Source: Escherichia coli
GTDB taxonomy: Bacteria > Pseudomonadota > Gammaproteobacteria > Enterobacterales > Enterobacteriaceae
Reading direction: 5' to 3' (one strand)
Length of the DNA stretch: 64,000 nucleotides
NCBI RefSeq assembly: GCF_017348835.2
Contig: NZ_CP071375.1
Position numbers and translations under genes: made by a program. The notes beneath the pieces were generated by a model. The model did not search any database. It had not been told where the DNA came from and saw nothing but the letters and a program-made list of their open reading frames with translations. This document shows, piece after piece, positions 12,403 through 13,611 of the stretch; the first letter of the stretch is position 1, and each line of letters begins with the position of its first letter.

Positions 12403-12678
12403 GTGACACTGGCGGCTTTTTGTTTTCCTTTACTTTCATTTTCTGTCGGCGGTGACGGAGACATACATCAGATGGAAAAAATCACAACAGGTGTGTCATA
12501 CACCACGTCAGCGGTAGGGACGGGATACTGGTTACTGCAACTGCTGGACAAAGTCTCTCCGTCCCAGTGGGTGGCAATAGGTGTACTGGGGAGTCTGCTG
12601 TTTGGCCTGCTGACGTATCTGACTAACCTGTATTTCAAAATCAGAGAGGACCGGCGTAAGGCGGTGCGGGGAGAGTAA
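12403..12678 (+). CDS. Holin, phage-21 S21-type pinholin (likely start ATG 12472, 68 aa; upstream in-frame extension possible)
   Basis: [62 protein letters not shown] matches the S21 family. Confidence 0.8.
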
Positions 12679-12679
12679 A

Positions 12680-13027
12680 GTGATGAAGAAAAAATACGAA
12701 CTGGTTGTTAAAGGGATAAATAATTACCCGGATAAGATTACTGTTACTGTGGCACTGGAAATTGGTGGGTATCCGTCACTGTTGTTGCCAGATGTGGCGA
12801 TTAGTCTTGACCGTACTGAAGGTGCCACGCTGGAGTTTTACGAAGCTGAGGCGAAAAAGCAGGCGAAGCAGTTTTTCATGGATGTTGCTGCCGGGTTATG
12901 TGAAGGGGATGGTCCGTTGCCGGAAAAGCGGCCCATCATTTTAGAGGCGCAGGATGTGTTGATAACCTACAGAGGAAAACTACCGGGAATAATTACTGGT
13001 TCTCTGAAGACTCCACCGCTGGCCTGA
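12680..13027 (+). CDS. Hypothetical 115-aa soluble protein inserted between holin and endolysin
   Basis: ORF starts 2 nt after the holin stop and ends 50 nt before the endolysin. No TM segment and no recognisable motif. Confidence 0.5.
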   Translation: MMKKKYELVVKGINNYPDKITVTVALEIGGYPSLLLPDVAISLDRTEGATLEFYEAEAKKQAKQFFMDVAAGLCEGDGPLPEKRPIILEAQDVLITYRGKLPGIITGSLKTPPLA

Positions 13028-13077
13028 AGACTTAACATATCCAGGGATTTGAAATCGATAAATCCTGATAAATATCC

Positions 13078-13611
13078 ATGAACGCAAAAATCAGATACGG
13101 CCTGTCGGCTGCCGTTCTGGCGCTGATTGGTGCAGGGGCGTCTGCGCCTGAAATCCTCGACCAGTTTCTGGATGAAAAGGATGGTAACCACACCACAGCA
13201 TACCGTGATGGTACGGGTATCTGGACCATCTGCCGCGGTGCCATCCTGGTGGATGGTAAACCTGTCGTCCCGGGCATGAAGTTGTCGAAGGAAAAATGCG
13301 ACCAGGTTAACGCCATTGAGCGTGATAAGGCGCTGGCATGGGTGGAGAAAAACATCAAAGTGCCGCTGACCGAACCCCAGAAAGCGGGGATCGCGTCATT
13401 CTGTCCGTACAACATTGGTCCCGGTAAGTGTTTCCCGTCGACGTTTTACAGACGAATTAATGCAGGTGATCGCAGGGGAGCATGTGAGGCGATTCGCTGG
13501 TGGATTAAGGACGGTGGCAGAGACTGCCGTATTCGCTCAAACAACTGCTACGGTCAGGTCTCACGGCGTGACCAGGAGAGCGCGCTGGCGTGCTGGGGAA
13601 TTGACAGATAA
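13078..13611 (+). CDS. SAR endolysin (T4-lysozyme-like, R21 type)
   Basis: 177 aa. N-terminal weakly hydrophobic SAR segment GLSAAVLALIGAGASA, then a lysozyme catalytic region. Confidence 0.8.
   Translation: MNAKIRYGLSAAVLALIGAGASAPEILDQFLDEKDGNHTTAYRDGTGIWTICRGAILVDGKPVVPGMKLSKEKCDQVNAIERDKALAWVEKNIKVPLTEPQKAGIASFCPYNIGPGKCFPSTFYRRINAGDRRGACEAIRWWIKDGGRDCRIRSNNCYGQVSRRDQESALACWGIDR

Follow-up and report, generated by a model that had tools for sequence, protein, structure and literature searches.

The stretch of DNA analysed here, called the window throughout, comprises 64,000 nucleotides (nt) of Escherichia coli (assembly GCF_017348835.2, contig NZ_CP071375.1) and contains an H-19B-like prophage without stx, in whose lysis cassette a small gene lies between S, which encodes an S21-type pinholin, and R, which encodes a signal-arrest-release (SAR) endolysin. 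This gene belongs, with practical certainty, to the YdfR/DUF1327 family and is probably an accessory gene that is not needed for lysis. Taken as a whole, our reading is a tentative one: an optional gene of the moron type whose product is a binding module made late in infection, possibly directed against RNase E. An action through RNase E or RNA, argued by analogy with a paralogue from E. coli K-12, is by itself somewhat doubtful. The central features of the cassette are the following, with lengths given in amino acids (aa):

12472..12678 (+): S, 68 aa, a pinholin (class II holin) of the S21 type, one start codon, matching PF04971
12668..12675 (+): Shine-Dalgarno sequence GGGGAGAG, within the final S codons and 7 nt 5' of the ATG of the YdfR-family gene, by direct reading
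12683..13027 (+): YdfR-family (DUF1327) gene of 114 aa, WP_000731236.1, assigned by PF07041, phrog_406 and the RefSeq name
12683-12904: its N-terminal domain, residues 1-74, predicted beta-beta-beta-alpha
12905-13024: its tail module, residues 75-114, PEKRP...ITGSLKTPP, modelled with low confidence
13028..13077 (+): A/U-rich spacer of 50 nt before R, without a Shine-Dalgarno-like purine run
13078..13611 (+): R, an R21-type SAR endolysin of 177 aa, matching PF00959

Against Pfam, the protein scores 155.4 bits with PF07041 (cut-off 25, E 4.7e-46), residues 2-113 aligning with positions 1-92 of the 93 in the profile, and it matches phrog_406, a family without an assigned function, with an E-value of 1.8e-64. 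The identical protein is named 'YdfR family protein' in RefSeq and occurs on at least 990 contigs; in NCBIfam no model was found for it. YdfR of the K-12 prophage Qin is related over residues 1-74 (BLASTP E 1e-23, 47% identity), the tails not being homologous, and its gene holds the same slot in the order essQ-ydfR-rrrQ-rzpQ. Considering the DUF1327 match, the at least 990 contigs and a ratio of non-synonymous to synonymous substitution rates (dN/dS) of 0.2-0.3 in deep comparisons, the open reading frame (ORF) is certainly a real gene and not a chance ORF.

A reading made from the letters alone, referred to here as the sequence-only reading, had described a soluble gene of 115 aa at 12680-13027 that starts 2 nt after S and interrupts two genes that normally sit side by side. 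The order S, small ORF, R is indeed present, and the solubility of the product is borne out by a maximum 19-residue Kyte-Doolittle value of 1.18 and a pI of 5.5. A frame of 115 aa does open at GTG 12680 and ends with the stop at 13025-13027, but the likely start is ATG 12683, which is used by RefSeq and supported by the Shine-Dalgarno sequence and which leaves 114 aa and a spacer of 4 nt. Likewise, adjacency of S and R is found in 933W, where they are 4 nt apart, but does not hold for E. coli prophages generally. The claim that the insertion is unrecognised and unusual had to be given up, since the protein is annotated as DUF1327/YdfR and the same arrangement, essQ-ydfR-rrrQ, exists in K-12 Qin. 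The gene is already known by its Pfam family, RefSeq product name and K-12 gene name, it stands in its usual slot, and as a feature it is ordinary; it is an annotated and common component of this lysis cassette, though not one with a known function.

In a blastn search of 5426 complete E. coli genomes the ORF was found in 3158 of them at 6734 places, with up to 8 copies per genome, and R at 10721 places in 4259 genomes, figures by which the interrupted cassette would be about as common in chromosomes as the uninterrupted one, or more so. Conservation of the ORF between S and R, proposed earlier as a check, was seen in about 80 viral or genomic loci, and the occupants of the slot include K-12 Qin, YYZ-2008, mEp460, PhiR42_1, Evi, 2H10 and PhiR12_1. 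This holin type is encoded in 427 GenBank phage records; because the DUF1327 protein is encoded in 101 of them and is missing from the other 326, and because 933W is without it, the gene is optional. Inducible phages, namely H-19B, BP-4795 and Stx1a and Stx2c phages (Stx standing for Shiga toxin), retain the identical protein intact. Sorted by the Stx type in the organism names, the gene is present in 41 of 47 Stx1a, 15 of 17 Stx2c and 2 of 124 Stx2a phage records, a tracking that may be a lineage effect only.

The family as a whole amounts to 282 clusters at 90% identity (from 5.8 billion proteins) and 93 representatives at 50% identity (from 1.84 billion). Across 185,579 species representatives the Escherichia-type sequence was found only in Escherichia and Shigella, apart from two further matches on contigs of metagenome-assembled genomes, which are taken to be E. 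coli contamination. All Escherichia copies probably stem from one insertion.

The position of the gene relative to S is tightly kept. The S stop and the ATG are 4 nt apart in the window, as are essQ and ydfR in Qin, and in nearly every locus with upstream sequence among the roughly 80 compared, 3-4 nt separate the holin stop from the ORF, against 6-22 nt in a few. The distance from the ORF to R ranges from -4 to 881 nt across the same loci. In 933W, R itself starts 4 nt after the S stop and is served by the same GGGGAGAG element that serves the ORF in the window; the YdfR-family gene takes over this strong S-proximal ribosome-binding site. On reading, the leader of R at 13028-13077 showed no Shine-Dalgarno-like sequence. 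The final ~15 nt of this leader (GATAAATATCC) share homology with the 3'-terminal part of Qin ydfR, a gene whose stop codon overlaps the start of rrrQ (ATGA). Expression of R may therefore differ where the ORF is present: by losing the S-proximal Shine-Dalgarno sequence, R would become translationally coupled, as in Qin, or be left with a weak initiation region, as in the window, and the presence of the gene may thereby lower or re-couple R translation as a side effect.

As to transcription, a promoter scan of the + strand between S and R gave no promoter-like match, the count not exceeding that of shuffled sequences, and one weak match, 9 of 12, lay on the - strand at 12965-12938. A terminator scan returned two weak terminator-like stems, both inside the ORF; downstream of the gene, nothing convincing as a terminator was found. 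The YdfR-family gene thus appears to depend on the late transcript, in agreement with the sequence-only reading, which had expected it to be co-expressed with S and R. A promoter and terminator of its own, which belong to the usual description of a moron, were not found in the scan of the ORF surroundings, and this speaks in part against the label. The other marks of a moron are present, as the gene is there or not between collinear phages (933W has the identical junction without it) and its G+C content at third codon positions (GC3) deviates, being 0.48 for the ORF and 0.50 for the neighbouring Ant-like gene as compared to ~0.60 for S, R and Rz.

The S gene with which the ORF shares this junction matches PF04971, 'P21 holin S', with an E-value of 1.6e-32, and its product is 79% identical to K-12 EssQ and 100% identical to S of H-19B. 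It starts at ATG 12472 and stops at TAA 12676-12678, the mechanical ORF beginning upstream at GTG 12403. Positions 12463-12474 read ATA CAT CAG ATG, the same as in H-19B, while 933W has ATG TAC CAG ATG (MYQM). As the upstream Met of the 933W dual start is an ATA codon in the window, a longer product of the S71 type is impossible there.

The lack of this S71-type start, which is present in 933W and Qin, could mean that another regulator is needed, and a lysis-timing regulator was indeed among the roles that the sequence-only reading had listed. Such a protein would be a cytoplasmic antiholin-like factor, comparable in its logic to T4 RIII or P1 LydB, that is produced along with S, binds the charged cytoplasmic C-terminus of the pinholin or the unexported SAR endolysin, and tunes triggering. 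The nearly constant 3-4 nt spacing after the S stop and the use of the S-proximal Shine-Dalgarno sequence are consistent with it, and PMC13232886 refers to PMC3879167 for an envelope-integrity hit in the ydfR mutant of the Keio collection. No mention of ydfR was found in the main text of PMC3879167, however, and the Keio phenotype is likely a polar effect on rrrQ. The protein lacks transmembrane segments and does not resemble the holin, DUF1327 being its only Pfam match. Furthermore, the gene co-occurs with MKSM-, MYQM- and single-start S alleles alike, so that it is no substitute for a dual start, and it is missing from 933W and from 122 of the 124 Stx2a phage records in which this holin is encoded. 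Distant family members lie far from holins in tail-gene clusters, the ORF evolves fast and near neutrality while S and R are under strong purifying selection, and overexpression of K-12 YdfR gave no growth phenotype (PMC13232886). Taken together, a regulator of lysis timing is quite improbable. Membership in the antiholin class was also considered and rejected, as the protein is neither a holin isoform nor a membrane or periplasmic protein and its co-occurrence with the holin is inconsistent, as seen from the 326 holin-type records without the gene; by its predicted properties, the YdfR-family protein is not an antiholin.

The protein itself consists of a conserved N-terminal domain of ~72 aa and a replaceable C-terminus. 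It is mildly acidic, and its maximum Kyte-Doolittle value compares with 1.83 for S. In alignments, Y53 and E54 are invariant across the family, joined within the Escherichia branch by R44, E46 and G47. The structure prediction that had been suggested was carried out with AlphaFold2 on a diverse alignment and gave a confident beta-beta-beta-alpha model of the N-domain (pLDDT, the per-residue model confidence, 90.3; pTM, the predicted global fold score, 0.78) with predicted strands at residues 5-14, 18-27 and 37-43 and a helix at 50-74, and with residues 73-114 below a pLDDT of 50. Foldseek against BFVD returned nothing below an E-value of 0.01 for the domain and a sequence-profile search of the PDB gave no match, and therefore no fold family is assigned. 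A double-stranded RNA-binding domain, which would call for an alpha-beta-beta-beta-alpha fold that opens with a helix and for similarity to the dsrm profile, was rejected as a candidate.

Across the ~80 loci the ORF varies from 69 to 385 aa. Long forms of 263-385 aa (loci L017, L039, L043, L053, L067 and L095) add coiled-coil and further modules without a Pfam match, the 114-aa form of the window represents the N-terminal third of those with 268-385 aa, and many variants are truncated or frameshifted. In one long form, a C-terminal module (L095, residues 150-203) resembles gp22, a moron product of phage HK97, with an E-value of 1e-7.

Rates of change were compared by the Nei-Gojobori method on the same genome pairs for the ORF, S and R. 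While dN/dS is 0.04-0.12 for S and 0.05-0.14 for R, the N-domain reaches ~0.9-2.1 against the closest distinct allele group, with 2-4 synonymous and 13-14 non-synonymous changes between close alleles, mostly in residues 27-49. In deep comparisons, in which dS is saturated, the N-domain has a dN/dS of 0.20-0.28, and the tail module (codons 75-111) lies at 0.16-0.6. The contrast between the ORF and S plus R is significant (Fisher p 1.6e-5), a value that must be taken with caution since allele pairs are not independent. Positive selection was considered and rejected, since the excess over neutrality is not significant (2 vs 13 changes, binomial p 0.31) and the pairs are again non-independent. As judged from these allele comparisons, the DUF1327 N-domain is fast-evolving, and its predicted fast surface and conserved core, together with the low GC3, are marks of an acquired accessory gene. 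The invariant Y53/E54 beside the fast residues 27-49 we count as the signature of an interaction module.

The same near-neutral rate between close alleles would also be expected of a passenger without function, that is, a decaying remnant of a longer modular gene that is retained for its place between two genes under selection and as a translated spacer through which R is expressed. The many truncated and frameshifted variants, the correspondence of the 114-aa form to a third of longer ones and the silence of K-12 YdfR upon overexpression (PMC13232886) point in this direction, as does the decay of the prophage itself, which is seen in the E35D exchange of R and, in the close relative in E. coli PE164, in a portal frameshift and a tape-measure gene cut beside an IS3 element. 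The deep dN/dS values of domain and tail argue against it, however, and so do the invariant residues, a predicted fold that is both confident and conserved, the identical intact protein in inducible phages and on at least 990 contigs, and the persistence of the family in other phage slots as a compact gene of 72-76 aa. We regard a mere passenger as very unlikely.

The only experimental lead, which points to RNase E, comes from K-12 YdfR, of which residues 1-72 were recovered in a two-hybrid screen with RNase G as bait; the full-length protein gave a two-hybrid signal with Rne1-597, and Rne1-598-FLAG co-eluted with Strep-YdfR (PMC13232886; RNA Biol 2026). DNase-resistant nucleic acid co-purified with YdfR, a contaminant not being excluded by the authors; upon overexpression no growth defect appeared and the transcriptome changed little (PMC13232886). 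The interaction region, residues 1-72, coincides with the conserved domain of the family. In the window, the optional moron-type gene occupies the slot between S21 pinholin and SAR endolysin of Escherichia lambdoid prophages, and its N-domain would serve as a cytoplasmic protein-interaction module that is made late in infection. Extrapolated from K-12 YdfR, its likeliest target, and the only one indicated, would be RNase E in its N-terminal catalytic half, perhaps along with RNA, and binding could modulate RNA decay or processing during expression of the long late transcript.

Several points weigh against this proposal. The RNase E data come from a 47%-identical paralogue and were obtained by overexpression, two-hybrid assay and co-purification from lysate. 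There was almost no transcriptome effect, and the co-purifying RNA is a possible contaminant (PMC13232886). An acidic protein with a pI of 5.5 is, moreover, ill-suited to direct RNA binding. The fixed position beside S could still be compatible with a role linked to lysis; as all Escherichia copies probably go back to one insertion, the shared position counts neither for nor against such a role. In the literature on DUF1327, ydfR, essQ and the Stx holin and endolysin no study on a role in lysis was found, and a survey of Stx-phage genomes and lysis cassettes does not discuss the gene (PMC8136144).

Relatives outside lysis cassettes bear on this question as well. A sensitive profile search of viral contigs recovered distant members of 72-86 aa that score above the Pfam DUF1327 threshold; a scan of genome contigs with a single distant 72-76-aa protein gave no match. 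The distant genes occupy tail-gene or terminase-proximal slots (about 3000-3550 in each locus): three follow a lambda-I-like tail gene (L009, L011, L027), one lies between tail genes resembling M and L (L010), two follow the tape-measure gene (L036, L069) and one follows Rz/Rz1 (L029). By the similarity of flanking sequence to tail genes of Serratia, Klebsiella and Escherichia phages, their hosts can be placed loosely. As DUF1327 members occur in tail, terminase and Rz slots, the domain is a mobile accessory unit that is not bound to the holin, and the gap between S and R is one hotspot among several. Beside these members, L010 also contains, at 2323-2565 and 5' of the M-like tail gene, an 80-aa ORF that ends ...SLAEIERRAIEDANQQLKDLVAGF and has no Pfam match; its strand-then-helix pattern resembles the DUF1327 domain, and it is possibly a putative distant relative.

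All seven of the distant loci have, within ~20 nt of the DUF1327 gene, a convergent ORF that encodes a helical protein of 79-110 aa of the phrog_10490 or phrog_25324 type, the partner proteins falling into two sequence groups. Seen from the partner side (L100-L119), a convergent DUF1327 gene lies within ~20 nt in 19 of 20 loci. Judged by this arrangement, the distant DUF1327 gene and its convergent neighbour are a conserved forward/reverse pair. Phage Evi has such a cassette exactly between S and R (L005, 2501-3040), with a 72-aa DUF1327 gene and a reverse gene of 98 aa (phrog_25324) that resembles the partner in L027. Many other Escherichia phages have a reverse gene of varying family in the S-R slot, among them phrog_2572, phrog_2411 and ORFs of 188 and 233 aa; those located are on the reverse strand, 3' of the DUF1327 gene, at the following positions of their loci:

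L006/L007, 2958-3266 (-): reverse-strand gene in the S-R gap
L037, 437-709 (-): reverse-strand gene in the S-R gap
L089, 3311-3589 (-): reverse-strand gene in the S-R gap
L018, 3541-4242 (-): reverse-strand gene in the S-R gap

The 3' end of the reverse gene often overlaps that of the DUF1327 gene, and on the evidence of gene order, reverse morons have a hotspot between S and R. The window ORF could thus be the orphan half of a two-gene moron module whose convergent helical partner of ~80-110 aa was lost. One possible form of such a module would combine an exclusion, defence or toxin-like protein expressed in the lysogen with a late neutraliser or sensor, the window copy acting alone or on partners encoded by other prophages. 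Besides the pairing seen from both sides, the Evi cassette and the varied reverse genes, this explanation has in its favour the 'moron / reverse moron' gp22/gp23 of HK97, which have the same architecture in the I-J slot, as well as the fast evolution, the polymorphic C-termini and the up to 8 copies per E. coli genome. Against it, a reverse gene is missing from the cassettes of the window, H-19B, Qin and mEp460, and the gap to R in the window is only 50 nt. In PADLOC-DB 2.0 no defence family was matched by the window protein at E <= 0.05, and the long DUF1327 forms and the convergent partners gave chance-level matches only. The partner families are in part unrelated, so that adjacency may just mark a shared hotspot. 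An orphaned half-module is, on balance, unlikely. Quite unlikely, too, is a broader proposal that joins both lines, in which DUF1327 domains would belong to a two-gene forward/reverse moron module, widespread among enterobacterial lambdoid phages and so far undescribed, with a late-strand beta-beta-beta-alpha protein and a convergent lysogen-strand helical protein engaged in inter-phage conflict or host takeover; the partner-less S-R copies would then bind the catalytic half of RNase E late and set the stability of late transcripts.

By ORF listing and Pfam scans, the lambdoid lysis region of the window is complete. Its remaining features are these:

10176-12026: SASA/NanS-p-type esterase gene, from the ORF listing and a Pfam scan
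12391..12417 (+): terminator-like G+C-rich hairpin of 11 pairs followed by the T-run TTTTGTTTTC, ~55 nt 5' of the S start
13878..14432 (+): Ant-like antirepressor gene with P22_AR_N and ORF11CD3 domains, a second interposed gene, between R and Rz
14432..14578 (+): strongly hydrophobic 48-aa ORF between ant and Rz (phrog_4906; WP_000539792.1 in relatives)
14586..15053 (+): Rz i-spanin, PF03245, E 3e-50
14806-14991: Rz1 o-spanin ORF embedded in Rz, with a lipobox-like LVVSAC and a Pro-rich sequence

The hairpin at 12391-12417 lies between the esterase gene and the lysis genes, within the mechanical 91-aa extension of the S ORF, and Q-modified transcription would be expected to pass through it. 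The Ant-like gene stands between R and Rz also in 933W and resembles the YdfR-family gene in its presence/absence pattern and base composition. The ORF at 14432-14578 is a small membrane protein within the lysis region. R has an N-terminus of the SAR type, rich in Gly, Ala and Ser, and is 90% identical to K-12 RrrQ. Its catalytic Glu35, part of the E-x8-D-x5-T triad, is replaced by Asp (GAT, 13180-13182), while H-19B, RrrQ and 933W have Glu; the underlying base (13182, T vs A) is the sole difference from the nine closest genomes and is shared only with E. coli PE164. The E35D endolysin of the window prophage may be crippled.

The 1209-nt region from 12403 to 13611 is 99.6% identical to phage H-19B (AF034975), in whose record the ORF is unannotated, and positions 1-27421 of the window are 99.945% identical to the prophage of PE164, a pig isolate. 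In the annotation of the latter, TerB-family and DUF3927 genes come after the tRNA genes, at the place that stx1AB occupies in H-19B; aligned with L098 (10095-10690), this region corresponds to ~9170-9770 of the window. In the PE164 prophage a frameshift affects an ORF of the portal region and the tape-measure gene is truncated beside an IS3 element, and the PE164-type prophage is probably defective.

The YdfR-family gene is thus part of a lysis cassette in most E. coli genomes. If it influences late mRNA or RNase E, or alters the translation ratio of S to R by displacing R from the S-proximal ribosome-binding site, lysis timing and toxin release may shift, and if it is one half of a forward/reverse moron pair, a class of phage accessory modules that has yet to be characterised would be indicated. 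Should the module also act on RNase E, the late transcript of the stx genes would be affected as well in relatives that carry them, the window having none; this could contribute to differences in lysis and toxin behaviour between Stx1a and Stx2c phages, most of which have the gene, and Stx2a phages, which almost never do. Modest follow-up is merited, on the function of a very common gene and on the forward/reverse pairing of its distant relatives.

Among known systems, the lysis genes of the cassette are of the type of phage 21 and 933W, with S21 pinholin, R21 SAR endolysin and Rz/Rz1. A close parallel is K-12 Qin, which agrees with the window in the family of the gene, in the order S21 holin, ydfR, R21 lysozyme and Rz, and in the 4-nt holin junction. 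It differs in that K-12 YdfR has 103 aa and the tail KHERPHHKYL, unrelated to the tail ITGSLKTPPLA of the 114-aa window protein, and in that hardly anything agrees across the loop and beta3 (residues 24-45); in addition, ydfR overlaps rrrQ by its stop, whereas the window has a 50-nt gap without a Shine-Dalgarno sequence. With 933W the window shares S, R, Rz and Rz1 of the same type (92-97% identical) and the Ant-like gene, but 933W has R, and not a YdfR-family gene, 4 nt after S on GGGGAGAG.

T4 RIII, P1 LydB and S21-71 with its dual start are small proteins encoded beside or with the holin and made simultaneously with it. Dual-start antiholins, however, are holin isoforms with transmembrane domains, whereas the window protein has none, does not resemble antiholins in sequence or fold and is dispensable in closely related phages. 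T7 gp0.7, T4 Srd and phiKZ Dip are phage modulators of RNase E, the T7 and T4 factors being early genes. If the K-12 result transfers, the window protein would be a small phage-borne RNase E binder that addresses the N-terminal catalytic half, as do Srd and RapZ, a host RNase E adaptor (PMC13232886); it would differ from the T7 and T4 factors in being made late, and overexpressed K-12 YdfR barely changed the transcriptome (PMC13232886). For HK97, the proposal that gp22 contains a DUF1327 domain was rejected (hhalign E 0.18), the L095 module alone resembling gp22, and gp23 matched no Pfam family. The likeness is one of architecture: between tail genes I and J, gp22 and gp23 form the same forward gene with a small convergent neighbour that is seen in the distant DUF1327 cassettes.

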